DNA from: a virus
Taxonomy: Duplodnaviria; Caudoviricetes
Direction: 5' to 3' (one strand)
DNA length: 55,701 nucleotides
Virus record (IMG/VR): IMGVR_UViG_3300023269_000002
Location: 1-55,701 of that record
Shown here: piece after piece, positions 39,951 through 55,701 of the stretch
How the letters are laid out: every line of letters begins with the position of its first letter
Position numbering within the stretch: the first letter of the stretch is position 1
The notes under the pieces: generated by a model
What the model saw: only the letters and a program-made list of their open reading frames with translations
Database searches by the model: none
Told to the model about the DNA's origin: nothing
Translations under genes and position numbers: made by a program

Positions 39951-39959
39951 CCTCCCGAT

Positions 39960-39989: not shown

Positions 39990-39995
39990 ATGGGT

Positions 39996-40316: not shown

Positions 40317-40322
40317 AACTGA

Positions 40323-40365
40323 ACGCCAGCCCCCCCGACCGCGGCATGGTCGGGGGGGCTGGCGT
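40323..40365 (+). terminator. Hairpin
   Basis: ACGCCAGCCCCCCCGACC...GGTCGGGGGGGCTGGCGT. Confidence 0.7.
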
Positions 40366-40376
40366 GTCCGCCTGGC

Positions 40377-40403
40377 GATGCATTCATCGGCTATGAATGC
40401 ATC
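40377..40403. repeat. AT-rich palindrome D (inverted copy of A)
   Basis: GATGCATTCAT-CGGCT-ATGAATGCATC. Confidence 0.85.
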
Positions 40404-41478: not shown

Positions 41479-41497
41479 CGGGGTCCTTCCAACGAGG

Positions 41498-41532
41498 GCG
41501 GGCCCTGCTCCGGGGAAGGGAGCAGGGCCCGC
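41498..41532 (-). terminator. Hairpin
   Basis: GCGGGCCCTGCTCC...GGAGCAGGGCCCGC. Confidence 0.65.
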
Positions 41533-41542
41533 GGGTGGATGA

Positions 41543-41773
41543 TCAGGCGGCGAGGATCACGTACACGTCGGTGCCCAGACGCTCGAACTCGAAGGCGCGG
41601 CCGCCCTGGGTGAGGGTGGTGCGCAGTCGGTTCCGCAGGCGGTAGAAGGCGAGGACGATCTCGTCCGCGTAGATGCCCATGTCCAGCAGCATCCGGAACC
41701 CCTGGTCTTCGGTGACCGCGTTCGCGGGGATGCTGGCGGGGGCGATGGTCTGGGTGCTGCTCGTGTTCGTCAT
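41543..41773 (-). CDS. Hypothetical protein (leaderless, MTNTSS...)
   Basis: Single gene with its own promoter and hairpin. Confidence 0.7.
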   Translation of the reverse strand: MTNTSSTQTIAPASIPANAVTEDQGFRMLLDMGIYADEIVLAFYRLRNRLRTTLTQGGRAFEFERLGTDVYVILAA

Positions 41774-41779
41774 GGCAGT

Positions 41780-41809
41780 AGCGTAACCCCCCACCGTGGG
41801 GGGTGTCAA
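41780..41809 (-). promoter_or_regulatory. Operator-spacer promoter, leaderless
   Basis: TTGACA-CCCCCCACGGTGGGGGGT(18)-TACGCT-6 nt-ATG. Confidence 0.85.
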
Positions 41810-41817
41810 CACCTGGA

Positions 41818-41916
41818 CTAGCCCCTCCTCCTGGCCCGCCTGGCGGACGCCTGGCGCATCGCCTCCCGGAGCTGGTGCAGGCCGAGGTACGCGCGGAACA
41901 GGTAGAAGGCGCTCAC
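41818..41916 (-). CDS. Very small hypothetical protein
   Basis: GTGA overlap; fills the gap before the promoter. Confidence 0.35.
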   Translation of the reverse strand: MSAFYLFRAYLGLHQLREAMRQASARRARRRG

Positions 41917-42347
41917 CGCTCCGCGTCCTCTGCCGCATCCGCGATGCCGAGCGCGTCGACCACGCCCGCGAGGCGCGTCATCGTGGCCGAGAACAGCGGG
42001 CCCCAGGCCTTCGCCAGTCGGGGCAGCACCGTCGCGGCAACCGCGTCGATGGCCTGCACGAGGGCGCGCTCGCTGCCGTCCAGCAGGATGCCGGTCGCCG
42101 CGGTGCGCCCCTTGCGCGGCTGAACGTAGTAGATCCACAGCACGTAGCCGCCGAGCGTCAGGTCCGCCGGGTCGAGGTCGGGCGTGTCCGTGGTGGCGGT
42201 CTCGTAGCCCCAGCCGTACGGCTCGTTGAGGCTGTCCGCCGGACGCAGGTCGCGCCGGAACGCCTCGACCGAGGTGTGCAGGGTGTGGAAGTCCGCGGGG
42301 AACGACGCCTCGTGCAGCGCGTCGGACAGCGGGAGTTCGATCTTCAT
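41913..42347 (-). CDS. Hypothetical protein
   Basis: ATGA overlap, GGAAGG RBS. Confidence 0.65.
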   Translation of the reverse strand: MKIELPLSDALHEASFPADFHTLHTSVEAFRRDLRPADSLNEPYGWGYETATTDTPDLDPADLTLGGYVLWIYYVQPRKGRTAATGILLDGSERALVQAIDAVAATVLPRLAKAWGPLFSATMTRLAGVVDALGIADAAEDAER

Positions 42348-42691
42348 CGGGGCCCTTCCTGATCTTGAACGGCGATCACTGCTTGACGGGGGTCCGTCGC
42401 TCGGCGAGCGGCGAGCACCACCCACGGGACTCCGGTCTCGACGTCGACCAGGCCGAGCGGCACCGTGTTCTGCATCTGCCACGCGCGGTCGGCGCACGCG
42501 GCCATGACGTCGGGGCCGAGGTGCCCCGCGGCCTTCATCGAGCCGAGCGCCAGCCCGTCGGTCAACGTCGACCAGGCCGCGGCCGCGCGGGGCACGCTGT
42601 CCTTGAGCGTGCCGAGCTGGCGGGCGGCCTGCTCGAACATGGCGCTCATCCGCACGCCGAACGCGTGGATGTCGTCCGCCGAGATGCTCAC
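42344..42691 (-). CDS. Hypothetical protein
   Basis: GAGG before GTG; coupled to the next gene. Confidence 0.6.
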   Translation of the reverse strand: MSISADDIHAFGVRMSAMFEQAARQLGTLKDSVPRAAAAWSTLTDGLALGSMKAAGHLGPDVMAACADRAWQMQNTVPLGLVDVETGVPWVVLAARRATDPRQAVIAVQDQEGPR

Positions 42692-42702
42692 CTGCAGCGG
42701 CC

Positions 42703-43296
42703 TCACGGCGTGGCCACCTGCCCGCCCCACTGCGCGGCCATCGCCAGCGCGACCCCCTGGTACGTCCTCGAGCGGGCCCTCGCCCGCCCCTTGCTGTCCG
42801 GCATCCGCCATGCCCGTTGCTCCCTTCCCTCGACGACGTCCGTGGCCTCGAGCCGCGGCAGGCCGCGCAACCACAGGCACGTGGTCTTGACCTCGCCGTG
42901 CCCGAACTGCCACGGCTGGATGATCTGGTCCGGCCTGCGCCACGCGGTCGACAGGTAGCCGACCGGGTTCTCGATCGCGACCCGGTCCGCGTTCGGGTGC
43001 TCGGCGAGCGCGAGCGCGAACTCGACCGCGCGCTGCTGCGCCCCGCTCTCCCGCTTCGCCGGCCACCAGCGAGCGCCGGACGCGGCGAGGTCGGTGCACG
43101 GCGGGAAGCCGAGGACGAGGTCCCACTGCCCGCCGTTGTCGAGCACCTCGAGCACGTCGCCCTGCAGGTGCCGTTCGGGGTCGCCGTCGGTCGGCTCGAG
43201 GTCGCACGACCACGCGTCGTGGCCGAGCGCGAGGAACGCGTCCCGGACCACGGCGCTGAACTCGCACGCGGCGAGCACCCGGAGGCGTGCCGTCAC
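42703..43296 (-). CDS. Short DNA cytosine-C5 methyltransferase-like protein
   Basis: VLAACEFS..VR.AF...G.DAWSCDL, GFPPCT (motif IV), IENPV (motif VI), RSRTY.G.A.AMA.QW. Confidence 0.8.
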   Translation of the reverse strand: MTARLRVLAACEFSAVVRDAFLALGHDAWSCDLEPTDGDPERHLQGDVLEVLDNGGQWDLVLGFPPCTDLAASGARWWPAKRESGAQQRAVEFALALAEHPNADRVAIENPVGYLSTAWRRPDQIIQPWQFGHGEVKTTCLWLRGLPRLEATDVVEGREQRAWRMPDSKGRARARSRTYQGVALAMAAQWGGQVATP

Positions 43297-43577
43297 TGGC
43301 CGGACCGGCGCAGGCGCTCGGCCGCCGTGGCGAGCGAGACCCGCGGGGCGTCGTCCCGACGGACGGCCGTCCACCTGGGGTTGTAGCGCAGCTCGTCCGT
43401 GCTGACGATCTCGACGAAGTCGCCGGAGGAGTCGAGGAGGGCGACGTGCCCCTCGGGGGCGTCCGCCTGGTCCTGGTCGATGGCGAACTCGATGCCGTCC
43501 CGCCTGTCCAGGATGACCCCCGGAAGGACCAGGTAGGCGTGCTCGTCGGCGCTGTAGATGTTCTCGGTGTGCGTCAT
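43293..43577 (-). CDS. Hypothetical protein (leaderless, MTHTE...)
   Basis: ATG 7 nt after the -10. Confidence 0.7.
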   Translation of the reverse strand: MTHTENIYSADEHAYLVLPGVILDRRDGIEFAIDQDQADAPEGHVALLDSSGDFVEIVSTDELRYNPRWTAVRRDDAPRVSLATAAERLRRSGQ

Positions 43578-43584
43578 GTGGGCA

Positions 43585-43613
43585 ACAGTACCCCCCATGG
43601 TGGGGGGTGTCAA
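43585..43613 (-). promoter_or_regulatory. Operator-spacer promoter, leaderless
   Basis: TTGACA-CCCCCCACCATGGGGGG(17)-TACTGT-7 nt-ATG. Confidence 0.88.
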
Positions 43614-43713
43614 CACGGCTCGCATGTTCGGTTCTCCGGTCCGTGAGAGGTCGAGACTTCCCGCAGGTCGGCGCGTCGGACCCTGCTCGAGGGCGACGCG
43701 CCGACCACACCCC

Positions 43714-44091
43714 CTACCCCTGGGGGTCGAGAGCCTGCCGCAGGTCTGCCATGGGGACAGTCTTGCGCCGGACGTCCAGCAGGGACCGCGCGCGGGCGAG
43801 CGCCACCAGCTCGGCGGCGACCTGCTCGCGAGCCCTGCGCGTGACCTCCTGCAGCTCCTCCTGGTGCCGCGCGAACTCGGCGCGCTGGCGCTGGGCGCAG
43901 CCCTCGTTCGCCTCGCCCAGCTCGTCGCGGGGCACCACGCGGGCCCACAGGGCGCGCACCCCGGCGAGGAAGACCGGCTCGCCCTCGCGCCCCTTGCCGT
44001 GGTGCGTGGCGTCCGTGAGCGCTTTGTTCATGGCCGCGACCAGGTACGACGGCACCTCGTCGCCGAGCGAGTCGAAATAGCTGCGACTCAT
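43714..44091 (-). CDS. Hypothetical protein
   Basis: AAGGGA RBS, ATGA overlap. Confidence 0.6.
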   Translation of the reverse strand: MSRSYFDSLGDEVPSYLVAAMNKALTDATHHGKGREGEPVFLAGVRALWARVVPRDELGEANEGCAQRQRAEFARHQEELQEVTRRAREQVAAELVALARARSLLDVRRKTVPMADLRQALDPQG

Positions 44092-44189
44092 GCCCAGTCC
44101 CTTCGGGTCTTCCACCAGATGAGCAGTTCGCGGGCGAACGTCGCCCCCGACAGCACGGGGGCGACGACGCCGAGCAGCACGGTCAGCAT
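44088..44189 (-). CDS. Small membrane peptide
   Basis: MLTVLLGVVAPVLSGATFARELLIWW; AGGAG upstream. Confidence 0.45.
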   Translation of the reverse strand: MLTVLLGVVAPVLSGATFARELLIWWKTRRDWA

Positions 44190-45703
44190 CCGGCGCGCTC
44201 CTGCAGCATGGCCGCGCGGCGGGCGGCGGACACCGTGACGGCAACGCTGGCGATGTACTCGGCCAGCGTCATCGTGACCACGCGCTGCCCGGTCGATCGG
44301 TGCTGGTGGGTGCAGCCGTCCGCGCACGAGGAGTCGTGCTCGCCCTCCTGCGGGGCGTCGACCCCGTAGAACTCACGGACGACCGGGTCCGTCGACTTCT
44401 GGCGTGCCTCGTCGAACATGCGTTCCAGTCCGCGCTTGTCCTCGGCCAGCTCGGCGGGCGTCTTCGGTCGGCCGCGCGGGTCCGCCCGCGGGGCGCTCGG
44501 CACGGCGTCCGCGCGTTCCAGCTCGTCGGCCTCGTGCTCCCACACCTCGCCGTCGACGGTGCGGGCGAACACTGTCTCGCCGACGACCTCGAACACTTCG
44601 GCCGTTGCCCCGTCGAGCTGGCGCACCTGCTCGCCCACGGCGAACGGGACCGGCCTGGTCACGGACGAGACCACGCGGCAGGGGTAGCTAGCGTCGGCGT
44701 ATTCCTGCTGCTTGTGCTCGGCTAGGCAGCGGGTCGCGTACGGGCCCAGCACGTCGTGTCGGTCGGTGAGGCGCTGGCCGACCAGGGGCACGACCCAGTA
44801 GCTCGAGTCGATGCCCAACCGGACCGGCTTGGCGCGCGGCACCTCGCCAACCAGGTGGCAGTCATCCTTTTCGAGCACGCCTTCGAGAGCGTGCGCCGGG
44901 TGGCCGGGAAACGCAGCGCCCGTGCACGCGCTACCCGCGGGGCAACCGGCCGTGAGTTGGGCGACGGTCTTCGCGAGCGCGTTGTTCGCCCCGGCGACCC
45001 ACGACCGGAGCGCCTGCCGCGCCTGCCCGACGCCCTCGTGATCGGTCGCGATCCAGTCGTCCTCGATCAGCGCGTCCAGGTCGCGGTGCAGCTCGTAACG
45101 CTCGTCGCTCTCGGCGACCAGGTTGACGCCCTCGGCGTCACTGCCCAGCACGCGGAACAGCAGGCCGGAGTCGCTGCGTCGCATGTAGACGGGCGCGGGC
45201 CGACCCTCGGCGCGGGCGAAGACGACGTTCATCATCTCCGGGGTCGCGTCGACCCACTTCGGGGACTGGTCGGGCTCGTCGAGGTCGACGGTCCACAGCC
45301 GCGTGCGCCCGTTGACCAGCTCGGTTCCGACCGCTGCGATGCGCTTGAGGTGCGGGTCGATCAGCACCTGCGAGTCACGGAGCTGCGCGGCCGCGAGCGC
45401 GGTGTGCATGGCCGCGTCGTTGACCCGGCGCAGGTGCTCGATCACGGCGAAGCACTCGGCGGAACGGACGTTGCTCACGTAGGTGGGCTTCACGCCCGCG
45501 GCCGCGCAGCCCTCGTCCGTCAGCCTGAACATGCCGCGTTCCGTGGCGCTTTCCTGCACCAGGCCAGCGGCGACCAGCGACCGCCACGTGTTCGGCCGCA
45601 CGAAGGACAGGCCGACGTACTCGTGCCCCAGGTACCCCGCCAGGCGGTCGAGGGTCTCGCGCTGCTTCTCGGTCAGCTTCACCGTTGCTCCCTTGTTCGT
45701 CAT
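44183..45703 (-). CDS. Large multidomain hypothetical protein (leaderless, MTNKG...)
   Basis: N-terminal KLTEKQ...L...GLV...F.LT.EG winged-helix-like segment. Confidence 0.75.
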   Translation of the reverse strand: MTNKGATVKLTEKQRETLDRLAGYLGHEYVGLSFVRPNTWRSLVAAGLVQESATERGMFRLTDEGCAAAGVKPTYVSNVRSAECFAVIEHLRRVNDAAMHTALAAAQLRDSQVLIDPHLKRIAAVGTELVNGRTRLWTVDLDEPDQSPKWVDATPEMMNVVFARAEGRPAPVYMRRSDSGLLFRVLGSDAEGVNLVAESDERYELHRDLDALIEDDWIATDHEGVGQARQALRSWVAGANNALAKTVAQLTAGCPAGSACTGAAFPGHPAHALEGVLEKDDCHLVGEVPRAKPVRLGIDSSYWVVPLVGQRLTDRHDVLGPYATRCLAEHKQQEYADASYPCRVVSSVTRPVPFAVGEQVRQLDGATAEVFEVVGETVFARTVDGEVWEHEADELERADAVPSAPRADPRGRPKTPAELAEDKRGLERMFDEARQKSTDPVVREFYGVDAPQEGEHDSSCADGCTHQHRSTGQRVVTMTLAEYIASVAVTVSAARRAAMLQERAGC

Positions 45704-45710
45704 AGGAGTG

Positions 45711-45740
45711 ACCCTACCCCCCTACCGTGGGGGGTGTCAA
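45711..45740 (-). promoter_or_regulatory. Operator-spacer promoter, leaderless
   Basis: TTGACA-CCCCCCACGGTAGGGGGG(18)-TAGGGT-7 nt-ATG. Confidence 0.85.
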
Positions 45741-45830
45741 ATCTGGGGGCAAACCAAACGGCCGAGGGGTCCGGGGTCCAACCCGAAACACCTCGGCCGC
45801 AGGTCAGCGGGCGTGACCGCTGAGGGTCGT

Positions 45831-46457
45831 CTACTTTTGCCGCGTGGTTTGAGGGGCGCTGGTGGTGCTGGGCTGGTCTTCGGCGGTCCCCGTGGTGGGG
45901 GTGTCGATGGTGCGCCACGGGGCGAGGTAGACGTCGCGGGCGATGAGGGTCAGGTTCTGCCAGCTTGTCTGGGCGAGCTGGTCGGGGGCGGACTGTTTGG
46001 CGTGCCAGGTGCGGGCGAGGCGTTCGGCGTGTGCTCCGGTGCCGATGGTCTCGACGCGCTCCTCGCCTTCCCGCCCGTACTGCAGGGCCCACTCGGTGAT
46101 GTGGGCGACGGGCTGGCGCTGGTCGCCCTGCTCGACGCCGAGGGCGTGGCGCTGGTCGGCGGTCAGGTAGTCGACCGCCTGGCGGGCGACGGCGTACACG
46201 AGGGTGCCGGAGCACTGCGGCTGGATGGCCTCCTGATCAGGCCGCAGGGGGGCCGAGTAGGACAGGTCGGCGAGGCTGTCGTCGGCGAACCGGTACACCC
46301 GGTGCTGGCGGACCTCCCACCGTCCGGCCGTGCCGCGGTACTCGCGGACGAGGTCGGGCAGCGCGTCCGGGAACAGCTCGGCGAGCAGGTCGTCGAGCGA
46401 CTGGTGCTGGCCACGCAGCCCGTTGACCACGTCGATGATGCGCTCCGCGTCGCTCAC
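45831..46457 (-). CDS. Hypothetical protein
   Basis: GTGA overlap; followed by hairpin CGGCCGAGG...CCTCGGCCG at 45759-45799. Confidence 0.6.
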   Translation of the reverse strand: MSDAERIIDVVNGLRGQHQSLDDLLAELFPDALPDLVREYRGTAGRWEVRQHRVYRFADDSLADLSYSAPLRPDQEAIQPQCSGTLVYAVARQAVDYLTADQRHALGVEQGDQRQPVAHITEWALQYGREGEERVETIGTGAHAERLARTWHAKQSAPDQLAQTSWQNLTLIARDVYLAPWRTIDTPTTGTAEDQPSTTSAPQTTRQK

Positions 46458-47026
46458 TGCCCGCCCCCCTGTCGCTTCTCCTCGGCCTCGACCAGCTTCT
46501 CGAGTTCCTCGCGGGCGTCCTTCGTGCCCGCGAGCTCTTCGCCTCCGGACATCCGGGGCGGGGTGTTGATCTTCATCGGCGCTTCCTCCCTCGTCTCCTG
46601 CTGAACCTGACCTCGCTCGCGCACGGCGCGCAGAGCGGCTGTGTAGGGCACGCCGTGCTCCTGCTGGTACCGGCGCGCTGCCCGCTTGAGCTGGGTGCTG
46701 GGCACGGGGTGACCTCGCTTCGACCTCTTCGTGACTGGCGCTGGCGACGGGTGCCACCAGCTCGGGTGGACGAACACGTCCTCGCGGACCGCGGTCGACG
46801 TGGGCGTCCAGGTGAGACCGCCGTAGCGCTCCGGCGGGTAGTCGCCAACCCAGTAGACCTGCGCGTCCGGCGGGACGAACTCGGCGTGCAGCAGAGGACG
46901 GATCGAGCCGTCGCGCCGGGCGACGTGGCGTGACCAGGTGGCGGACAGCTCGCGCGCCTCCGCCCGACGAGCCACCGTCTCCGTCCAGCGGTCGAACCTC
47001 GCCCGGTCCCTGCGCGTGCTGCTCAC
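46454..47026 (-). CDS. Hypothetical protein
   Basis: GTGA overlaps; LKRAARRYQQEHGVPYTAALRAV segment. Confidence 0.55.
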   Translation of the reverse strand: MSSTRRDRARFDRWTETVARRAEARELSATWSRHVARRDGSIRPLLHAEFVPPDAQVYWVGDYPPERYGGLTWTPTSTAVREDVFVHPSWWHPSPAPVTKRSKRGHPVPSTQLKRAARRYQQEHGVPYTAALRAVRERGQVQQETREEAPMKINTPPRMSGGEELAGTKDAREELEKLVEAEEKRQGGGQ

Positions 47027-47355
47027 GAGGACGACGCCCGCTCGGCCGCGGCGAGGATGCGCTGCAGGTGCCGGACTTTCGTCCCGACCTCCGCCAGCTC
47101 GCCCGCGAAGTCGGGGCCCTCCGCCCCCTCGGTGAACTCCACCCAGTACAGGCGCGAGGACATGAGCGCCTGCGTCGACTGGCCGATCTGGTCCAGCTCG
47201 GCCGTGATGGTGAGCAGCCCCTGCCGGATGTCGCGCAGGTGGTCGTCGATCTCGGCCCCGTGCTCGTCGACCTCCTCGAGCGCACCGCCGAGGGACTCCG
47301 GCAGGGGTACGCCAGGCGGGCGGGCGTCGGTGCTGAAGTCCGTCACGTCGGACAT
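47023..47355 (-). CDS. Hypothetical coiled-coil protein
   Basis: GGAGG RBS. Confidence 0.7.
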   Translation of the reverse strand: MSDVTDFSTDARPPGVPLPESLGGALEEVDEHGAEIDDHLRDIRQGLLTITAELDQIGQSTQALMSSRLYWVEFTEGAEGPDFAGELAEVGTKVRHLQRILAAAERASSS

Positions 47356-47364
47356 GAGCCCTCC

Positions 47365-47808
47365 TCAGAACCAGTAGGGGCGGCCGTCGGCGTAGCCGTC
47401 CGGCTCGCGCTCGCGGTAGGTCGCCATCGGCCAGGCCGCGGTGCGGGTGCTGCCCTCCCACACGTGGTGCTGCAGCTTCCACACCATGCGCAGCTCGTCG
47501 CCCTCGTAACCGGAGATCGACAGCACGCGGAACCGCACGTCGGCGAAGTCGACGGGCCCCTCGTGCGTGAGCGCCATCTCGGGTGCGCAGACGAGCGGCA
47601 CCTGCGCGATGTCGCCCGCTCGCGTCCGGACGTCGAGGAAGAACTGCGACTCGAACGGCAGCAGCTTCGGCACGCTGGGGTGCGCGTCGGAGCCGGGCGG
47701 CACCTCGACCGAGCACGACCTCGTCGGAGGCATGGCCGGTTCGGTCGGCAGCTCGGCGGCGACGGCGATCGGGTGCGGTGCCGCGGTGAACCTGACGCCC
47801 TCCCTCAT
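47365..47808 (-). CDS. Hypothetical protein
   Basis: ATGA overlap. Confidence 0.6.
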   Translation of the reverse strand: MREGVRFTAAPHPIAVAAELPTEPAMPPTRSCSVEVPPGSDAHPSVPKLLPFESQFFLDVRTRAGDIAQVPLVCAPEMALTHEGPVDFADVRFRVLSISGYEGDELRMVWKLQHHVWEGSTRTAAWPMATYREREPDGYADGRPYWF

Positions 47809-48209
47809 CGCGGCACCCGGCATCCCGCGAGGTGGTGCTCGAGGGCGAGGGCGACCAGGTGCGGGAGTCCGGCGGCATCGGGGTAGCCGTCAACCGTCTC
47901 GCGCCAGGTGCAGGGGTCGTGCCCGATGGTGACCGCCTGCGGGCTCACATCCGCCGAGGGGTGAACCCGGTACTCGGCGAGCTTCTGCGCCAGCGGCACG
48001 ACGCCGATCACGGAGCCTGACGCGGCCGCCAGCGCCTCGCCGAGCGTCTGGGAGGGCGCGGGGGTCGGAGGGGCGTCGACGCGCCGGAGCGTGATGCTGA
48101 GGGCGTTCGGGTCGACAGGGTCCGGGGCGATGGCCTCGACCCGGAACGTCTGCGCCGAGCCGTCGGGCGTGGTGACGGTGAGCGCGTCGCCCTTGCGGTA
48201 GTCGATCAT
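47805..48209 (-). CDS. Hypothetical protein
   Basis: GAGGAG RBS, ATGA overlap. Confidence 0.65.
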   Translation of the reverse strand: MIDYRKGDALTVTTPDGSAQTFRVEAIAPDPVDPNALSITLRRVDAPPTPAPSQTLGEALAAASGSVIGVVPLAQKLAEYRVHPSADVSPQAVTIGHDPCTWRETVDGYPDAAGLPHLVALALEHHLAGCRVPR

Positions 48210-49159
48210 GAACGGATCTCCTCTGCGTCGAGACGGATCTGCGCCTCCGGCCAGGCCGCGGTGTCCACGCCGAGCAGCGCCCCGCGGACGGTCCACGTGT
48301 GGAACGTCAGGCTCGCGTCGTCGCCGTAGGTGTAGTCGCCGTCGACCGCCGTCACCTCGAGACCGACCGCGGCGTCCTCGCCGCGCAGCAAGCGCTCGAG
48401 GAGGTCCGGCGCGTGCTCGGTCAGGTAGTCGACGCGCAGCACCCCGTGCGCCACGACGTGCTGATCGAGCAGGCCGACACCCAGGATGGTGCCGCCGATG
48501 TGCGCCTGCCCATCACCGTTGCGCACCGTCAGCGGCAACGGGGTGTCGCGGTAGGCGACGAACATCTCCGGCCGTGCCAGCGTCCGGCCGTCGACGCTGG
48601 GCTGCTCGACCATGCCGAGCGTGCCGGACCAGCGGACGACCTTGCGCTCTACCGCGCCGGCGGCTTCGGCTTGTCCAGCTCCTCGTGCAGGCGCTCCTGG
48701 ATCTTGTCCACCAGGTCCGCCGGGGGCGGGTCGTTCGGGGGCGTCGGGTTCGACATCGGGCGTGGCCTCCACTGGGTAGCGGTTGAGCAGGGCTTTCACT
48801 TGCGGGTAGGCGCAGTTGCCGTGCGCGTCCCTCGGCCAGTGCGCGGAGCACTCGCCGAACAGGTCGACGCGGCACTCGCCGAGGTCGGTGTCGATGTGGC
48901 ACTCGAGCAGGTAGAGCGCCTCCTGCAGGGCGCGCTCGTGCTCGCACCGGTCGCGGCTCCGGCCGTGCTGCCAGCGCCGGTACTGCAGGACGGTGTAGTC
49001 CGCCAGCAGGTACAGCGCGACGGACGCGACGAGCAGGACCAACAGGCTGATCGGGCCGTCCTCGACGAACATGCGGCGAGCGCCCACGATCGTGAGGAAG
49101 GCCAGGAAGACGAACGTCAGCACGTCGAGCGTGCGGAGGATCTTGTCGCGCAGGCTCAC
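48206..49159 (-). CDS. Membrane protein with C-terminal domain resembling the prohead-protease N-terminal domain
   Basis: Two TM segments, a Cys/His cluster, then W.G.LG.VE.PSVDGR.L...R.TPLPL...IGG.I...A.G...VRGALL...AAW.EA.I. Confidence 0.65.
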   Translation of the reverse strand: MSLRDKILRTLDVLTFVFLAFLTIVGARRMFVEDGPISLLVLLVASVALYLLADYTVLQYRRWQHGRSRDRCEHERALQEALYLLECHIDTDLGECRVDLFGECSAHWPRDAHGNCAYPQVKALLNRYPVEATPDVEPDAPERPAPGGPGGQDPGAPARGAGQAEAAGAVERKVVRWSGTLGMVEQPSVDGRTLARPEMFVAYRDTPLPLTVRNGDGQAHIGGTILGVGLLDQHVVAHGVLRVDYLTEHAPDLLERLLRGEDAAVGLEVTAVDGDYTYGDDASLTFHTWTVRGALLGVDTAAWPEAQIRLDAEEIRS

Positions 49160-49341
49160 CGGACACGCGCCACGGTGCGGAACCCGGCGACGGCCAGCGC
49201 CAGCGGGAAGCTCACGGCGGCGACGCTGCCCCACAGCGGGAGCCAGCCGGACAGGATGAGCGAGGCGCTGAGGCCGCCCAGCAGGACGAGCACGGACAGC
49301 GGCTCCGCGATGGTGGTGCGCTTCGGGGGGTTTGTGGTCAC
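49156..49341 (-). CDS. Small membrane protein
   Basis: Two hydrophobic segments; GTGA overlaps. Confidence 0.55.
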   Translation of the reverse strand: MTTNPPKRTTIAEPLSVLVLLGGLSASLILSGWLPLWGSVAAVSFPLALAVAGFRTVARVR

Positions 49342-49442
49342 CGGAGTGCCTTCCGGACGAGGCCGAACGTCACGAGGACGGCGGCGAGGGCGGTCGCGAT
49401 GGAAGCGAAGCAGCCCTTCTTCGGGGCTGCGTGCTGCAGCAC
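49338..49442 (-). CDS. Small membrane peptide
   Basis: Not in the track; AAAGGA RBS; MLQHAAPKKGCFASIATALAAVLVTFGLVRKALR. Confidence 0.5.
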   Translation of the reverse strand: MLQHAAPKKGCFASIATALAAVLVTFGLVRKALR

Positions 49443-49464
49443 GTCGGGTCCTTTCGGGGTAGCG

Positions 49465-49497
49465 ACACTCTACCACCCATCATGGGGGGTAGAGTGG
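49465..49497 (-). promoter_or_regulatory. Operator palindrome with extended arms and TAGAGT -10
   Basis: CACTCTACCACCC-ATCAT-GGGGGGTAGAGTG; -35 poor. Confidence 0.7.
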
Positions 49498-49835
49498 CTG
49501 GGTTGACGGTAGGTTGCGCCAAGCGCGTCGAGCACGTCCTCGGCGACGGCCTGGTCCCGCGCCGCGCCGAGGGTGGCGGCGACGGCGCGCTGCTCGCGCC
49601 AGTAGGTGATGTCGCGTGCACGCTGCACGGACTGCTCACGGAGCTGGGCGAACCGCTGTTCTGCGATCCGGGCGCGACGTGCGCGAACGCCCCGCGTAAT
49701 GGTCCACACCCAGGAGACGAGCGGGACGAACAGCACGAGGGCGACGAGCGCGACGCGCTGGCGGCCTGTGGTGAATCCGGGCCACGACAGCCAGAGCGCC
49801 CCGCCGATCATGAGCCAGCCGATGAGCGTGTCCAC
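49470..49835 (-). CDS. Membrane protein
   Basis: AGGAGG RBS; two TM segments. Confidence 0.65.
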   Translation of the reverse strand: MDTLIGWLMIGGALWLSWPGFTTGRQRVALVALVLFVPLVSWVWTITRGVRARRARIAEQRFAQLREQSVQRARDITYWREQRAVAATLGAARDQAVAEDVLDALGATYRQPSHSTPHDGW

Positions 49836-49873
49836 GGGTTGCCTCCTGGGGTTCGGGTGCCTTGCTGCCGCGA

Positions 49874-49903
49874 ACTCTACCCCCCATCGTGGGGGGTACG
49901 CAA
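49874..49903 (-). promoter_or_regulatory. Operator-spacer promoter
   Basis: TTGCGT-ACCCCCCACGATGGGGGG(18)-TAGAGT. Confidence 0.8.
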
Positions 49904-50090
49904 CTCGCGTAGGCCAGACACGCCACCAGCACGACCGAGCAGAACGCCACCATCACGGGCGGATGCCACTCCGGGAGCCAGTACCGCGAGGCCGCCACCT
50001 GCGCCCACAGCCGCGAGAACATCATCGTCAGGCCGATGCCGTAGAGCAGCGCGTGCAGGAAACGAGTCACCCGCACGGCGCAGCGGACGG

Positions 50091-50198
50091 CTAGATCCAC
50101 CGGAACTGGGTGGCGAAGTACAGCAGCAGCAGGCCGACCGCGAGGCCACAGCCGATCGTCGCAGCCGCCACGGCCAGCGCCTTGAGGATCTCCCTCAC
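50091..50198 (-). CDS. Small membrane peptide
   Basis: GTGA overlap; one TM segment. Confidence 0.5.
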   Translation of the reverse strand: MREILKALAVAAATIGCGLAVGLLLLYFATQFRWI

Positions 50199-50401
50199 CG
50201 CTTCGCCGCCTTCTGCCGCCCGCGGAACACGTGCACCGCGAGCAGCGCGTCCGCCAGCACGTGCAGGCGGTCCCCCTGAAGCTGAACCAAGTTGTCCCAT
50301 GAGTCCCCCACCCAGACCGTGCCGTCCTCGTGCAGCGTCACGGTCATGTCGGTCCCGCCGTCTCGCAGCGGGAAGTGCCGGACGACCGGCGAGCTGGTCA
50401 C
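50195..50401 (-). CDS. Small hypothetical protein
   Basis: GTGA overlaps. Confidence 0.55.
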   Translation of the reverse strand: MTSSPVVRHFPLRDGGTDMTVTLHEDGTVWVGDSWDNLVQLQGDRLHVLADALLAVHVFRGRQKAAKR

Positions 50402-50577
50402 GACGCGTTCCGGAACAGGTAGCCGTGCGCCTCGAGGATGCCCAGGGTTGACGTGTCCTCCGGGTCTCCGCCGATCAGCTCGAGCGTCTGGTCCGGGTCG
50501 CCGTGGTTGACCCACTCGCTGCCGTCGTCGGCGATCATCACGCAAGGCAGGTCAGCGCCTGCTCGCGGGGTGAACAT
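50398..50577 (-). CDS. Small acidic hypothetical protein
   Basis: Coupled to the upstream stop. Confidence 0.55.
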   Translation of the reverse strand: MFTPRAGADLPCVMIADDGSEWVNHGDPDQTLELIGGDPEDTSTLGILEAHGYLFRNAS

Positions 50578-50825
50578 CACATCCCCACGACGGGGCCGGA
50601 GTAGCAGGCCAGGCCGTCGTGCGTCATGCCCGTGAAACGGAGGCCGCCGACCGGCGCGACCGCGGGGCGGCCGAGCTGGCGAGGGGCGGTGTAGGCCATC
50701 GGCCGGGCGAGCGCCGCGCGGGCCGCGGCGTAGACCTGCGGGCCGTTCGGGTCGATGAGCAGCGCGAGCGCGTACTCGTCGGTCAGGTCGCCGGAGAAGG
50801 TGGGGAAGTCGCCTGCGTTCGTCAT
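50577..50825 (-). CDS. Hypothetical protein (leaderless, MTNAG...)
   Basis: ATG 6 nt after the -10. Confidence 0.7.
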   Translation of the reverse strand: MTNAGDFPTFSGDLTDEYALALLIDPNGPQVYAAARAALARPMAYTAPRQLGRPAVAPVGGLRFTGMTHDGLACYSGPVVGM

Positions 50826-50831
50826 GCGCCC

Positions 50832-50861
50832 ACCTTAACCCCCCATCATGGGGGGTGTCAA
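50832..50861 (-). promoter_or_regulatory. Operator-spacer promoter, leaderless
   Basis: TTGACA-CCCCCCATGATGGGGGGT(18)-TAAGGT-6 nt-ATG. Confidence 0.87.
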
Positions 50862-50867
50862 ATAGTT

Positions 50868-50900
50868 GGGCCCCCTCGGTCGCAGCGAACGAGGGGGCCC
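50868..50900 (-). terminator. Hairpin closing the non-coding locus
   Basis: GGGCCCCCTCG...CGAGGGGGCCC. Confidence 0.65.
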
Positions 50901-51253
50901 TGCTCGGCACGTTGTGCGACCAACGGCCGTCCCGCTGGCGGGCGGGGAACCTAGGTGCTCGGCCGCCCCCGTTGCTTGATGAGCCTCAAGGGCCCTCGCT
51001 GCTTGGCGGGCGGCCGAGCTGGTGTGACCTAACGCGGCGAGCCCGCGAACAGGCTGACGGCGAAGCCACACCGTGCACCGGGCCAACTCCGTCCCCCGGT
51101 GCTGCCGCTGGCCATCTGCGTCAGGCCCAACCCAGCGGTTCCCAAACCATCCGCCCCTGCACCTAGCGGTTCGATGCGAGCGCCCTTCGGTGCTCGGCCC
51201 CCCGCTTGACGTGGCAGGTTATGGATTCCGTGGTCGCGATCACCTGCGACCAG

Positions 51254-51348
51254 CGAGCGAGCAGGGGGTCGAACCCTGCAACAGCACGCGGTTCGCGGGG
51301 GCGTGACTACCCGCTACTGTGCGCGCCGACGTCCAATGTCAGCCGCTC
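51254..51348 (-). ncRNA. tRNA-like element with extended anticodon arm
   Basis: GAGCGG/TCGCTC acceptor, D-like arm CTGAC-ATTGGAC-GTCGG, T arm GCAGGG-TTCGACC-CCCTGC. Confidence 0.5.
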
Positions 51349-51395
51349 TGCTTGCCGGCTACTTGCGGCTTCACGGGCCACGTTCACCTACTGCG

Positions 51396-51487
51396 TGTGC
51401 GACCGGGATTTGATACCCGGATTTCCCCACCTTGTGAACTCGGTTGCCCGAGTCCAACCCGGAGGCGTCCTGCTTGGACGACCGCAC
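51396..51487 (-). ncRNA. tRNA-like element with hairpin replacing the anticodon loop
   Basis: GTGCGG/TCGCAC acceptor, D arm GTCC-AAGCA-GGAC, T arm CCGGG-TATCAAAT-CCCGG. Confidence 0.5.
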
Positions 51488-51587
51488 TCCTGCGCGCTGG
51501 CGCTGGCTGTTCCATGACCGGGACGAGCGCCCTTTGTCCGGAGTTCTCCTCCGACCCCATGGCCTGCGCTGCGCTGCAACGGTGCCA

Positions 51588-51617
51588 ACCCTACCCGCCC
51601 ACCGTGGGGGGGCGCAA
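51588..51617 (-). promoter_or_regulatory. Operator-spacer promoter driving the non-coding locus
   Basis: TTGCGC-CCCCCCACGGTGGGCGGG(18)-TAGGGT. Confidence 0.75.
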
Positions 51618-51626
51618 GTCGGCAGT

Positions 51627-51803
51627 CTAGTCGGGCAACGCCGGGGGCTCCCAGCCCTCCGGGCGCTCGTTGTCCCGCACGTCTGCCAGCTCGTTCAACT
51701 CGCGCTGACCGGCGCGGGACGATCCGCCCCGGTACTCGGGTGCCTCGCGCGGACCGATCGAGTTCGGCGGCAGACTGACTGCGCGCTCCTCTCGGCGGGT
51801 CAC
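51627..51803 (-). CDS. Small hypothetical protein
   Basis: GTGA overlap. Confidence 0.4.
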   Translation of the reverse strand: MTRREERAVSLPPNSIGPREAPEYRGGSSRAGQRELNELADVRDNERPEGWEPPALPD

Positions 51804-51898
51804 TTGCACGGCCCCATGTGTCCGGCCACGCGCCAGCAGTACGGGCACGTCGGCGGCTCGAGCTGGATGTTCGAGCGCTTGCGCTTGCGCTTGCGCAC
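51800..51898 (-). CDS. Small basic Zn-finger peptide
   Basis: AAGGGA RBS; RKRKRKR...CPYC....H...C. Confidence 0.5.
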   Translation of the reverse strand: MRKRKRKRSNIQLEPPTCPYCWRVAGHMGPCK

Positions 51899-51944
51899 TA
51901 GGTTCCCTTCTCGTTGTCGGGCGATTCGCGAATCACGAATCACG

Positions 51945-52220
51945 TCAGCGGGTGAAGGTCTCGCCCTCGTCCGCCTCGTCCCAGACCTTCTGGCTGGGCG
52001 CGCAGACGTACCACTTGCCCTCGGTCGCGGTGACCCAGAAGCCACCGTAGGTGCACTTCTGGCCGCTGCCGCTGGCCGGGACGTCCGGGCCGAACTTGAG
52101 GCCGATGGTGCCGGTCAGCTTCTCCGGGCCGTCGTCGTTCGCGGCCTCGCCGCACTTCGCCGCCATGAGCAGCGGGGCGGCGAGTGCCAGCGCGAGTGCG
52201 ATCCTCTTGCGGGTGATCAT
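51945..52220 (-). CDS. Putative lipoprotein
   Basis: MITRKRIALALALAAPLLMAAK-C signal with lipobox-like Cys; GAGGA RBS. Confidence 0.7.
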   Translation of the reverse strand: MITRKRIALALALAAPLLMAAKCGEAANDDGPEKLTGTIGLKFGPDVPASGSGQKCTYGGFWVTATEGKWYVCAPSQKVWDEADEGETFTR

Positions 52221-52257
52221 TCGGGAAGTTCCTCTCGGTTGCTTGCCGTGCTCCGCA

Positions 52258-52287
52258 ACCGTACCCCCCATCGTTGGGGGGTGTCAA
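52258..52287 (-). promoter_or_regulatory. Operator-spacer promoter
   Basis: TTGACA-CCCCCCAACGATGGGGGG(18)-TACGGT. Confidence 0.85.
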
Positions 52288-52294
52288 GTCGGAA

Positions 52295-52621
52295 CTAGTC
52301 GCCGCCGTACCCCCAGTAGGCATCGACGTTGCGAGCGAACGCCAGCGCTGCGCGGGCGACCTCGCCGCTGGTGCGCGGGTCGTCGAACTTTGCGGCCTGC
52401 TCGGAACGGGTGATGTCCACATAGGCACCGCGGCTGTCCCGCATGGCGATCGTAAGCACGGCATTGTTCCCGGACATCGCCGACCAGGACGCGCGGATGC
52501 GGAATAACCCGGTCGTCAGCGTGTACGTGGATCGGCCGCTCCGGGTCTTGTGCCCGAACCCGTAGTCCTCGAGTGCCGCGATGGCTCCCTTGCGCGGGAG
52601 GGCGACTGCTGCAGTTTCCAT
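52295..52621 (-). CDS. Hypothetical protein (leaderless)
   Basis: ATG 6 nt after TACCGT. Confidence 0.65.
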   Translation of the reverse strand: METAAVALPRKGAIAALEDYGFGHKTRSGRSTYTLTTGLFRIRASWSAMSGNNAVLTIAMRDSRGAYVDITRSEQAAKFDDPRTSGEVARAALAFARNVDAYWGYGGD

Positions 52622-52627
52622 GTCACC

Positions 52628-52657
52628 ACGGTAACACCCCCCACGGTGGGGGGTCTA
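52628..52657 (-). promoter_or_regulatory. Operator with extended -10 promoter
   Basis: TAG-ACCCCCCACCGTGGGGGGT-GT-TACCGT-6 nt-ATG. Confidence 0.75.
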
Positions 52658-53098
52658 GATGGGGAGGCCGAGCGCCGTCCGCTTGGCGACCATGTTGCGC
52701 ACCGTGGCCGTGTCCTCGCGGTACATCCGCCCCGACGGCGAGCGCCAGCGGGTGCCGGACTGGTCGGTCATCTTCGACCAGTCCGCAGGCGAGTGGGTGC
52801 GCCGGGTGTTCGGGTTGCGCGGCCGGCGGATGCGCTGCTGTGGCGCGGCCGCCAGGGGGTCGCCGGGCACGTGCGCCGTGAGCGCGTCCAGGTCGTAGAC
52901 CTCGGCGCGGGCCCGCGCGTAGGACGCGATCTGCACCTCCTGAAAGGCCGTGTGCAGGCTGCGCAGGACGTCGCCGGGGTTTGCTGCCACAGCAGCCCAG
53001 CCGCGCGCCTGCGGGCTGCTGAACCGGTAGCCGCCGGTCGGCAGGGTCTCGACCTGCAGCATGATCGCGGACGGCTGGTGTGGAACTCGGCGGGTCAT
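52655..53098 (-). CDS. Hypothetical protein downstream of terminase
   Basis: ATGA overlap with terL; W.SPSGR.Y motif. Confidence 0.7.
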   Translation of the reverse strand: MTRRVPHQPSAIMLQVETLPTGGYRFSSPQARGWAAVAANPGDVLRSLHTAFQEVQIASYARARAEVYDLDALTAHVPGDPLAAAPQQRIRRPRNPNTRRTHSPADWSKMTDQSGTRWRSPSGRMYREDTATVRNMVAKRTALGLPI

Positions 53099-54894
53099 CG
53101 CCACCCCCTGCTGCCGACGCTGGTCGTGGGCACCTGCTGCGCCTGGCGGACACCCCCGTGCCGCTGCAGGTCCGGGCCGGACGCCCGCTGCAGTGAGCCG
53201 CCGTCGGAGCGCGACAGCTCCGTGAGCAGGTGGACGTTCGCGTCCATCCGGTTGGGCGACTTCTGGGTGACCTGCCACGTGGACATTTCGTGTTCGAGCT
53301 GGGCGAGGTGCCCGACGTGGGACACCTCGCGGTTGTCGTACAGCGGGGCGATGAACTCGGCGCGCTGCGTCTTGCTGCCCTTCGCCGTGACCGACTTGAG
53401 CGGGGGCCCCGTGCGCGGGGCAGAGCGGATGGCTCGCACGTACGGCCAGAGCTGGACCAGCTTCTGCCGCTGCGCCATCGCGTCCTGCTTGTCGTCCTCC
53501 TCGCGGGCGAGCATCTCGCAGGCGACCACCAGCACGGCGGCACGCGGGTGCTGATCGCGCTCCGGGAACACGGCGTCTTCCCCGTGCACGTGCTTCCACG
53601 CGGCGACCAGCACGCGCGCCTCCTCGCGGACGCGCTTCCACGTCGAGGCCGCCGAGCGGCGAAGGCCCGAGAGGCTGGCCTCCCAGCACACGGCGGAGGC
53701 GTCGAACTCGAAGCACGCGAGGTAGGCGCGCCGGAACCACTGGTCGATCGTGTAGTGCCCTGACCAGTCGGCGAGCACGGCATACCGGCCGTCGGTCGAC
53801 ACGCCGCCGACGATGATGCCAGCCTCGTCGCCGTCGCCCTCGTTGTCCGCGGGGTCCACCATCACGAGGGTGCGCTTCATCGGCGGCCGCTCGGTGAGCC
53901 GGTCGCGCCGGAACCACTCGCGCTGGAACACCCCGCCCGCGGGCGGAGCCGGGCGCTGCTGGTACATCGCGAACCACCAGCGCGAAGTGCCGCGGCCCTG
54001 GGCTTTCTTGATCTTCTCCCAGTCCTCGGCGGTCCGACCTCGAGCCGAGACCATGAACTCGCCCGGCTTGCGGCCGAGGGGGTCCTCGCCGATCGGGGGC
54101 TGCGCCTCCGGGTCCGGCTTCATCGCCTGCGCGGCGACGGCCACCTTCCGCCAGGCGGGTGCGTCCGGGTCGTCCTCGGCCTCGAGCCACCCCGCGAGAT
54201 CCTGCTCGTGCCACCTGGTCTGAACCACGATCACGATCGCGTCGGAGGACAGGCGGGTCGACGCGACGGCGAGATACCAGTCGATGACGTTCTGCCGGAT
54301 CTTCGGGGAGTCCGCGGCCTGCGCGTCCTTGATCGGGTCGTCGATGAACAGGACGTCCGCCGGACGCCCGGTGAAGCCGGAGCCCACACCGACGCTGATC
54401 ACACCTCCGGGCAGCGGCAACGTGGGCGTCTTCGCGAGAGCCCACTTCGTCGCCTCGCCGCGGACCGGGTCCAGCGCGAGGCCGAGGACGTCCTTACGGT
54501 CCGCGTCGCGGCGAGCGCCGAGGTAGCCGGAGCCGTGCGTCTCGAGGTACTGGCGCACGGCGAGGCCGGACACGCGGGCGAGCGACTGCTCGTAGGAGGC
54601 GAACGCGATGCGCCTGGTCGGGTCGCGCAGCAGCAGCCACAGCGCGGCCGCCTGGGCGCGGGTGCTCTTGCCCTCCTGCGGGGGGCAGTTGATGATCCAA
54701 CGCCGCTGCTCGCCCTTGTCGGCGAGGACGATGGCCTCGTCGAACTTGTCCAGCATCGGGGTCTGGACCGTGTCGTTTCGGACGAAGCGCGCCAGCTCGC
54801 CGGGGGTGGGGAAGCGGAGCAGGGTCTCGTTCGGCTTCGGGTTCACCCGTTGTTCGAACCGGTCCGCGAGGCGCGAGAACAGCGCGGACGTCAC
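53095..54894 (-). CDS. terL: Terminase large subunit
   Basis: INCPPQEGKS (Walker A), TGRPADVLFIDDPIKD, QTRWH..DL.G, YQQ.P, nuclease VDPA...DEAG...PNR.DA. Confidence 0.93.
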   Translation of the reverse strand: MTSALFSRLADRFEQRVNPKPNETLLRFPTPGELARFVRNDTVQTPMLDKFDEAIVLADKGEQRRWIINCPPQEGKSTRAQAAALWLLLRDPTRRIAFASYEQSLARVSGLAVRQYLETHGSGYLGARRDADRKDVLGLALDPVRGEATKWALAKTPTLPLPGGVISVGVGSGFTGRPADVLFIDDPIKDAQAADSPKIRQNVIDWYLAVASTRLSSDAIVIVVQTRWHEQDLAGWLEAEDDPDAPAWRKVAVAAQAMKPDPEAQPPIGEDPLGRKPGEFMVSARGRTAEDWEKIKKAQGRGTSRWWFAMYQQRPAPPAGGVFQREWFRRDRLTERPPMKRTLVMVDPADNEGDGDEAGIIVGGVSTDGRYAVLADWSGHYTIDQWFRRAYLACFEFDASAVCWEASLSGLRRSAASTWKRVREEARVLVAAWKHVHGEDAVFPERDQHPRAAVLVVACEMLAREEDDKQDAMAQRQKLVQLWPYVRAIRSAPRTGPPLKSVTAKGSKTQRAEFIAPLYDNREVSHVGHLAQLEHEMSTWQVTQKSPNRMDANVHLLTELSRSDGGSLQRASGPDLQRHGGVRQAQQVPTTSVGSRGWR

Positions 54895-55511: not shown

Positions 55512-55564
55512 TTACCCCCCATCGCAGCCCGGTCCCAAGCTGCCGGAGACCAGGCTTCCCGTGT
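55512..55564 (-). CDS. rusA: 3' end of the RusA-like gene across the circular junction
   Basis: In-frame continuation ...HTGSLVSGSLGPGCDGG* ending at TAA 55514-55512. Confidence 0.7.
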
Positions 55565-55701
55565 GGGCGGGCGGGTAGTGCTGCAACGGATTGTCGCCCG
55601 TGGCGTCGTGCACCACCAGCAGCACGCGCGGGCGGTTGCTCTTGAACGGGTCATCGCGCCGGGGCACCACCCGCTGCCAGGTGGTGAGCATGGCGACCGT
55701 T
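55565..55701. repeat. Terminal direct repeat, right copy
   Basis: Matches 1-139 apart from a 2-nt gap; the RusA-like ORF reads in frame across the junction. Confidence 0.92.

Follow-up and report, generated by a model that had tools for sequence, protein, structure and literature searches.

The stretch of DNA analysed here (the window) takes in an entire virus record of 55,701 bp (IMG/VR record IMGVR_UViG_3300023269_000002; Duplodnaviria, Caudoviricetes), the complete genome of an actinophage-like soil phage with a GC content of 70%. Within it, two minus-strand genes (50577-50825 and 51627-51848) flank a non-coding gap of 801 nucleotides (nt), 50826-51626, located in the interior of the genome, 1.5 kb downstream of the terminase gene. 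With moderate confidence, we interpret this locus as a self-contained minus-strand non-coding transcription unit, the predicted RNA of which has no match in Rfam. The analysis draws on comparison with a near-complete relative, a virus record of 55,553 bp denoted G001 (91.4% identity over 51,879 aligned nt), and with further variants represented by contigs from 4 of the 24 public sequencing runs listed (X2, X4, X5 and X18). The substitution and insertion/deletion (indel) figures for these variants are those of the alignments listed and are to be read as "at least"; the stretches of X4 and X5 that lack contig cover were not counted either way.

The gap carries no coding signal. Codon-position GC periodicity is absent over about 50840-51560, and in a genome-wide scan that yielded 25 low-periodicity stretches of at least 200 nt the longest, 50786-51605, measures 819 nt versus 429 nt for the next, in agreement with the preliminary description of this DNA, which had singled out the region as the largest gap without a credible gene. 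None of the 7 open reading frames (ORFs) inside the gap matches a PHROG family at E<=1, and the GC content at third codon positions (GC3) of the start-proximal ORF is about 62% by hand count, versus 82-97% in the accepted genes. In G001 a single nucleotide is missing at 51366 and stop codons interrupt both minus-strand ORFs of the 5' part, and X2 and X18 have 1-2-nt indels at 12 or more places in the locus. In the frame that opens at the predicted transcription start, 12 substitutions separate the window from G001, of which 4 are synonymous, 7 non-synonymous and 1 nonsense (hand reading); the substitutions are spread over the three phases as 7/11/5 (p=0.30), and in the flanking genes change is concentrated at third positions. 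Given the 1-2-nt indels, the stop codons and the substitutions without codon phase, there is no conserved reading frame, so that the outcome named beforehand as speaking against an RNA, namely homologues that keep a frame, is not what the relatives display. Together with the lack of GC3 periodicity, the low GC3 and the lack of PHROG matches, the frame-breaking indels and stops in relatives rule out a protein-coding locus.

The upstream limit of the unit is a promoter that belongs to a family present throughout this genome. A 17-bp palindrome, CCCCCCAnnnTGGGGGG, occurs in 16 copies with at most one mismatch, and when up to three mismatches are allowed there are 28 matches versus 8.0 +/- 2.6 in shuffled sequences. 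By hand reading of the alignment, 14 of the 16 palindromes lie between a TTGACA-like -35 element and a TAnnGT -10 element and fill the 18-nt spacer; in 9 of these 14 an ATG, usually in the form ATGACGAAC, follows 5-7 nt on and marks a leaderless gene. Such promoters resemble those with the conserved inverted repeats of phiC31 or the stoperators of Cluster A phages, and the recurrence of the palindrome suggests that one dimeric regulator gates many of the promoters of this phage. In the promoter of the unit the palindrome is the most degenerate of the promoter-associated copies, with one base lost in G001, and no start codon stands behind the promoter, from which transcription is predicted to start at approximately 51581. 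The -10 element reads TAGGGT in the window, TATGGT in G001 and TAAGGT in X2 and X18, and the family pattern is kept throughout. The preliminary description had proposed an operator promoter with this start site: the promoter and the start agree with the family alignment, and control through an operator is conjectural, given the degenerate palindrome and the base lost in G001. As a separate observation on this family, four palindrome promoters facing both directions are packed within 800 nt at 39187-39982, in a neighbourhood that includes some of the lowest GC values of the genome (39472, 39809), an arrangement that looks like a divergent control region.

The downstream limit is a terminal hairpin, already noted in the preliminary description and borne out by folding, which we presume to be a factor-independent terminator. 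It is the strongest fold (-45 kcal/mol) among the 70-nt windows upstream of 14 promoters, and it is unchanged in G001 (0/41 differences). Directly after the hairpin come the next promoter of the family and its leaderless gene. Thus, a promoter-like and a terminator-like element frame the non-coding sequence at both ends.

With respect to conservation, the yardstick is provided by the four-fold degenerate sites of 12 genes, which differ between the window and G001 at 426/3128 positions (13.6%); the adjacent genes range from 13.7 to 25.6%. The 5' part of the locus (51242-51581) differs at 24/340 positions (7.1%, P=1e-4), that is, at half the four-fold rate, and thus evolves more slowly than synonymous sites. 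The core is identical (0/287) and constitutes the longest identical run of the entire window-G001 comparison, the next being a 209-nt run in the portal gene. A spacer between the core and the terminal hairpin (50907-50954) differs at 14/48 positions (29%). Among the further variants, X18 is an 18,112-nt contig of approximately 95-fold depth, from a run that carries a single-organism label; its alignments cover 50928-51022 (9 differences in 95 nt), 51103-51168 (4/66) and 51275-51779 (58 differences, 6 gaps); in place of 51023-51102 it has 92 other letters and in place of 51169-51274 it has 99. Two variants come from X2: record 6 aligns over 50928-51507 with 15 differences, 4 of them in the blocks that X18 keeps at 6-9.5% divergence, and record 7 aligns over 51103-51507 with 40 differences and 11 gaps, whereas its counterpart of 50950-51102 is replaced by 118 letters. 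A 151-nt contig of X5 is identical to 51093-51241, and a short contig of X4 is identical to 51196-51410. Because X18 and X2 keep blocks yet replace other stretches, the locus is a mosaic of kept blocks and swapped segments.

Such a mosaic, with a spacer that differs at 29% of positions and weak tRNA-like folds (see below), would also be compatible with a functionless remnant, either a decayed leaderless gene or former tRNA genes behind a still-active promoter, in which the identical core is a recombination tract. Moreover, three substitutions in G001 at the equivalent of 51581-51583, where the window itself has no start codon, create an ATG at the predicted transcription start and open a leaderless ORF that reaches a stop at codon 43. 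We nevertheless consider a remnant improbable: the 5' part has only half the divergence of four-fold sites, X18 still retains blocks that diverge by 6-9.5%, and the genome is otherwise tightly packed, with no second non-periodic stretch beyond 429 nt. Furthermore, the ORFs of the gap belong to no protein family, and no Rfam tRNA is detected in it at E<=10.

The predicted parts of the RNA are listed in Table 1, together with other features of the genome that are mentioned in the text.

Table 1. Positions in the window of the predicted unit, its parts and other features of the genome.
Feature	Position	Strand	Details
Promoter of the unit	51588-51617	-	-35 TTGCGC 51617-51612; degenerate palindrome 51611-51595 in the 18-nt spacer; -10 TAGGGT 51593-51588
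5'-terminal hairpin of the predicted transcript	51567-51581	-	6 bp, 3-nt loop; pairing probability 0.91
Cloverleaf-shaped module (second tRNA-like fold of the preliminary description)	51397-51487	-	closing stem 51487-51482/51402-51397; hairpins 51480-51466, 51455-51436 and 51420-51403; minimum free energy (MFE) and alifold
GNRA hairpin	51436-51455	-	8 bp, GCAA tetraloop; pairing probability 0.82
Hairpin resembling a T-arm	51261-51279	-	6 bp, loop UUCGACC; within the first tRNA-like fold of the preliminary description, 51255-51327
Core	50955-51241	-	287 nt, identical in G001
Block C1	51103-51168	-	present in every relative seen; predicted imperfect 65-nt hairpin including CCGCUGG/CCAGCGG
Variable module V2	51023-51102	-	two complete hairpins, 51102-51075 (8-bp stem GCACCGGG/CCCGGUGC, pairing probability 0.99) and 51072-51021
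Long hairpin in block C2 (50928-51022)	50957-51019	-	perfect 12-bp helix 51019-51008/50968-50957 (pairing probability 0.99); inner 5-bp helix 50995-50991/50985-50981
Fast-evolving spacer	50906-50954	-	small hairpin 50928-50906; sequence differs in G001, fold retained
Terminal hairpin (presumed factor-independent terminator)	50868-50900	-	14-16 bp; arms of 16 nt, 94% complementary; pairing probability 0.99
Next promoter (3' limit of the unit)	50832-50861	-	TTGACA, palindrome, TAAGGT; drives leaderless gene 50825-50577
Palindrome sites (examples)	9097-9113, 39187-39203, 39554-39570, 39621-39637, 39966-39982, 41787-41803, 43591-43607, 45718-45734, 50839-50855, 52264-52280		
Terminase large subunit gene	53095-54894	-	
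Portal gene	34939-37839	-	
Major capsid gene	28655-30352	-	
Tape measure gene	19003-21900	-	
Endolysin gene	510-1898	-	
Gene for an 803-aa protein	32531-34942	-	downstream of the portal gene; probably a MuF-like multidomain head protein
Gene for a 108-aa product	51945-52271	-	may be a secreted protein or lipoprotein

Several of the changes among relatives are of the kind expected from RNA helices. In G001 the 5'-terminal hairpin retains all 6 pairs, with 51581-51567 changed from C-G to U-A and 51578-51570 from U-A to U-G. The cloverleaf-shaped module, which has a local z of -2.56, contains a GNRA hairpin with the loop GUAA in G001 and X2 and with a change at 51454 that turns G-U into A-U in G001. 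X18 has four single-base deletions in this hairpin, at 51451 and 51440 (a pair), of one G of 51447-49 and of one C of 51442-43, so that precisely two base pairs are lost and a 6-bp stem with the GNRA loop is left. In the hairpin resembling a T-arm, 51277 changes A-U to G-U in G001, and record 7 of X2 lacks one G and one C (51276, 51268); X18 does not keep this hairpin, since its alignment ends at 51275 and the next 106 nt are replaced. Within block C2, X2 and X18 have A-U instead of G-U owing to a substitution at 50994, and the small hairpin of the spacer has 2 compensatory pairs according to RNAalifold. The changes at 51477, 51277, 51055 and 50994 are all wobble-compatible, and in G001 4 of the 5 high-probability pairs that are touched by substitutions are kept. 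The limits of the swapped segment V2 agree within 1-2 nt with those of a pair of complete predicted hairpins. The genome contains 15 perfect inverted repeats with arms of 12 bp or more, among them the 12-bp helix of C2; the arms of this helix are 39 nt apart, versus 3-21 nt in 13 of the 14 others and 37 nt in the fourteenth. The stems named in the preliminary description are present in the sequence, as are the repeats it had reported, GGTGCTCGGCCsCCC (15 nt, 1 mismatch) and CGAGCGCCCTT (11 nt, exact), each in two copies; the 15-nt motif occurs twice directly and once partly inverted, and its exact occurrence is confined to this locus.

One arm of the 12-bp helix, 51019-51008, has two alternative partners, 50968-50957 and 51205-51192 (inverted repeats I4 and I5), and no hairpin is found between the stop of gene 51848-51627 and the gap. 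Both features would suit a cis-regulatory 3' untranslated region or attenuator, in which the locus would form the end of the operon upstream of it (genes 52621-51627), with alternative pairings controlling read-through into gene 50825-50577. We reject this explanation, to which we assign a low probability, because the three segments involved in the pairings are not conserved as a set: X18 has other sequence in place of 51169-51274, and record 7 of X2 in place of 50950-51102. Moreover, the downstream gene has a strong promoter of its own directly after the terminal hairpin, and the locus has its own conserved promoter.

Folding statistics confine significant structure to parts of the locus. The 0.716 kb of the locus contain 6 perfect stems of 7 bp or longer (8.4/kb) versus 518 in the genome (9.3/kb), and stems of 8 bp or longer occur at 4.2/kb versus 3.4/kb in the genome; enrichment is seen only from 10 bp upwards (2 in the locus versus 0.54/kb), the two stems being the terminator and the 12-bp helix. 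Only 50750-51100 (z of about -3, minus strand) and 51350-51499 (z of -2.6) fold locally better than shuffled sequences, with the other windows of the locus between about -1.8 and +1 and none below -2. For 50900-51099, z is -3.0 to -3.2 on the minus strand versus -1.1 to -1.2 on the plus strand, and for the whole 714 nt it is -2.6 (20 shuffles). The characterization of the minus strand as dense in stems therefore holds for the 3' third only, the 7-8-bp stems being at genome background.

The two tRNA-like folds of the preliminary description are at chance level. ARAGORN at default settings finds 0 tRNAs in the whole genome; at ps80 it returns 176 hits (3.2/kb), of which 4 are in the gap (5/kb), and the "Val" fold, which X18 does not keep, appears at this noise level only. 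The "Pro" fold (51393-51489) is one of 7 hits in the genome at ps90, and the corresponding module, with a middle arm of 39 nt, is conserved in relatives. A 771-nt query against Rfam at E<=10 retrieves neither tRNA nor tmRNA nor any Y-RNA-type model. Since the tRNA-like units are at chance level and a relative lacks one of them, there is no basis for the earlier proposal of a polycistronic precursor that is cut at such units by RNase P or Z, or of a tRNA-like Y RNA. The cloverleaf-shaped module, with changes that fit its fold, and the single hairpin with the T-arm-like loop UUCGACC are what this reading could build on, but the latter is not kept in X18 and the genome encodes no TROVE/Ro protein, so that we regard it as very unlikely.

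More generally, Rfam 15 gives 0 hits at the gathering score over the whole genome, and for the locus at E<=10 only noise (miRNA, P10 and frameshift-site models). The locus thus belongs to none of the GOLLD, ROOL, OLE, raiA, HEARO, Y RNA, tmRNA and tRNA families, a result that fits the earlier designation as undescribed. Several other types of element were ruled out. A six-frame search of the genome for integrases gave 0 matches each to PF00589 (tyrosine) and PF00239 (serine), and without an integrase an attP or tRNA-overlapping integration site is ruled out. Likewise, the reverse transcriptase family PF00078 has 0 matches in the genome, which rules out a retron msr-msd and a template of a diversity-generating retroelement, and PF05731 (TROVE/Ro) has 0 matches, which together with the lack of an Rfam hit rules out a Y RNA (YrlA). 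A type III toxin-antitoxin RNA or a CRISPR-like array is ruled out as well: TRF with a minimum score of 30 returned 0 rows, and only two-copy dispersed repeats are present.

Searches for homologues led to close relatives alone. A blastn search in distant mode against 50,697 phage records, among which near-identical records may be masked, yielded nothing at 1e-5 and, at E=2, only two chance hits of 31 nt, and 72,556 plasmids, with the same possible masking, contain no match to the locus. The 699-nt query against 401 Streptosporangiales genomes gave short hits (34-63 nt, E of 1e-5 to 1e-3 per genome) in 8 genomes; scattered over the query, they are read as chance, and an origin of the sequence from the host is ruled out on these grounds. 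Three genomes with 45-48% identical prophage terminases and 2 viral fragments gave nothing better than E=0.03. Terminase-anchored scans recovered G001, its twin record L026 and, beyond these, only fragments that stop short of the locus (L027 ends 64 nt past the terminase gene), and searches of viral contigs with the 73-aa neighbour and with a 22-nt core pattern each found only G001. The nhmmer search suggested in the preliminary description was run against the other compared loci, from phages with 28-53% identical terminases, and returned nothing at E<=10; no homologue thus appeared beyond the close relatives. Four of these phages (L006, L040, L005 and L004) have large non-periodic stretches near their terminases that share no sequence with the locus and contain no Rfam family except for one ordinary tRNA in L006.

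Because the locus is conserved, non-coding and framed from promoter to hairpin, and has no Rfam match, an undescribed non-coding RNA is the best reading. This much of the preliminary description stands, whereas the stem density and the tRNA-like units that it attached to such an RNA do not. We infer that the locus is transcribed and acts as RNA, and in trans. A number of observations weigh against this interpretation. The contigs in every run compared are of DNA type, and the RNA itself is predicted. A generic scan of 50300-52300 for sigma-70 promoters and terminators found 0 of either; therefore, the promoter and terminator calls rest on resemblance within the family of this genome and not on a generic consensus, and the terminal hairpin lacks a U-run. 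The locus is found in close relatives only, the phage, plasmid, Streptosporangiales and distant-terminase searches all being empty. Windows within 51100-51350 fold not significantly better than shuffled sequences (z of -1.2 to +0.8) despite holding the most conserved block, C1. In the MFE structure, 7/32 substitutions break pairs (null expectation 9.2 +/- 1.9, p=0.17); among pairs with a probability above 0.7, 1 of the 5 touched in G001 breaks (p=0.09, not significant), and in X2 and X18 0/3 break among the changes listed (p=0.33, not significant). Finally, the 0/287 identity of the core may denote a recently exchanged tract rather than constraint on each base: because kept blocks differ by 6-9.5% in X18, and record 6 of X2 has 4 changes there, the identity may partly reflect a shared tract. 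The lower divergence of the 5' part and the persistence of blocks make safer evidence for function than the identical core does.

The same identity of the core also fits a DNA-level cis element, whether for replication initiation, for packaging or for the clustered binding of regulators, with transcription incidental or merely activating. The 15-nt motif that is exact only here, twice direct and once partly inverted, and the lack of significant structure in the most conserved block are in line with such an element, as is the setting, with the global maximum of GC skew (49781) 1-2 kb off and the terminase gene 1.5 kb off. However, that maximum sits on a broad plateau at 40-55 kb, and the features by which a replication origin would be recognized are lacking: there is no iteron array or tandem repeat and no AT-rich stretch, the GC content being 0.67-0.70 with 0 of the ten lowest-GC windows in the gap. 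Moreover, the changes in the helices are RNA-type (wobble pairs, a retained GNRA loop, paired deletions), and the locus fits exactly between the promoter-like and the terminator-like element. Accordingly, a cis element has in our estimate only a small chance of being the correct explanation.

The phage that carries the locus is an uncultured, non-integrating, high-GC actinophage. Its nearest cultured relatives share an amino-acid identity of only about 35% in the terminase and about 31% in the portal protein, and Microbispora and Spirillospora genomes carry prophage terminases at 45-48% identity. The genes are mostly on the minus strand, including those for the terminase large subunit, portal, major capsid, tape measure and endolysin (Table 1); the Erf and SSB genes are on the plus strand. 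Because the first approximately 135 nt of the record (1-140) recur, imperfectly and with a small indel, at its end (55563-55701), the record is a circular or terminally redundant assembly and its ends are arbitrary assembly ends. Likewise, the ends of G001 share an exact 127-nt overlap that lies inside the locus and is an assembly artefact, not a physical end.

Two other regions of this genome deserve mention. Between the terminase and portal genes, 37840-53094 is filled with approximately 15 kb of small genes, an unusual place for such a block; those of the genes that were scanned gave no Pfam family match and one weak PHROG match only. One of them (51945-52271) encodes a 108-aa product with no family match which, judged by eye, has a hydrophobic, signal-peptide-like N-terminus followed by a cysteine and may be a secreted protein or lipoprotein. 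Downstream of the portal gene, an 803-aa protein matches several PHROGs, with the annotations portal, head maturation protease, virion structural protein and RNA ligase, and is probably a MuF-like multidomain head protein.

As for known systems, a report on the phages L5, D29 and StarStuff describes abundant, stable and toxic non-coding RNAs that come from approximately 500 bp downstream of the repressor-controlled early promoter Pleft; binding or titration of a factor is the role proposed for the L5 and D29 RNAs, the function of which is given as not established (Dedrick et al., 2017; PMC5712189). The locus resembles the L5-type RNA in that it belongs to an actinobacteriophage and consists of a promoter with a repressor-type site followed by approximately 0.5-0.7 kb without a conserved ORF and with many 1-2-bp indels among relatives. 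There is no sequence similarity between the two, which are comparable, not homologous. Furthermore, the L5 region is placed in that account at the extreme right genome end, leading into gene 89, whereas the locus is internal and closed by its own hairpin; and the L5 case is defined by abundance, stability and toxicity, whereas the locus is known from its sequence alone.

GOLLD and ROOL are Rfam families of large ornate RNAs from phages and prophages, for which RNA-only assemblies have been reported (PMC12286853). Like these RNAs, the locus is phage-borne, non-coding, of a length of 0.6-0.8 kb and with a function that is not known; unlike them, it has no covariance-model match at E<=10, no adjacent tRNA genes and little ornate structure outside its 3' third. 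GOLLD and ROOL often sit beside tRNAs, and the earlier comparison of the locus with these RNAs and with Y RNAs fails, with no match and no tRNA genes nearby. The tRNA-like Y RNAs known as YrlA, which act with Ro/Rsr, share with the locus one cloverleaf-shaped module, but here there is neither an Rfam hit nor a gene with a TROVE domain. Phage "morons" are autonomous promoter-gene-terminator cassettes inserted between phage genes. The locus is similar to them in having its own promoter and a terminator-like hairpin between unrelated genes, and a mosaic content that is exchangeable among relatives; it differs in that its cargo is non-coding and its promoter comes from the general family of the phage instead of a foreign source.

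Taken together with these comparisons, the best reading of the locus is a further example of phage non-coding RNA units of unknown function. We hypothesize that the family promoter (51617-51588) would start an RNA of approximately 715 nt near 51581, which would end at the strong hairpin 50900-50868. This RNA would be modular, composed of a 5' hairpin, the cloverleaf module with its GNRA hairpin, the conserved centre C1, exchangeable hairpin modules and the long hairpin of C2 closed by 12 bp, and the unit would be akin to a moron with an RNA in place of a protein gene as its cargo. The 5' and 3' terminal hairpins could confer stability, and the stable RNA might work in trans by binding or titrating a host or phage factor during infection. 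More speculatively, and at a level that we would call doubtful, the locus could found an undescribed class of modular RNAs of approximately 0.7 kb from soil actinophages, characterized by the blocks C1 and C2, the GNRA cloverleaf and exchangeable hairpins, produced autonomously and directed in trans at a host factor; such RNAs might, for instance, decoy a nuclease or defence system or titrate an RNA-binding protein.

To our knowledge, phages have yielded few non-coding RNAs of this size, none of them with a known function, and the Pleft RNA of L5 and D29 is the only actinophage case that has been studied. Should the region turn out not to be transcribed, it would still be the most strongly conserved non-coding DNA of this phage and a likely cis site. 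The single-organism label of the run behind X18, together with the approximately 95-fold depth of that contig, suggests that a culturable system may exist. A second, unrelated actinophage example, with clear promoter and terminator boundaries, slower change than at synonymous sites and natural swaps of hairpin modules, would be useful as a compact system for the analysis of RNA function.

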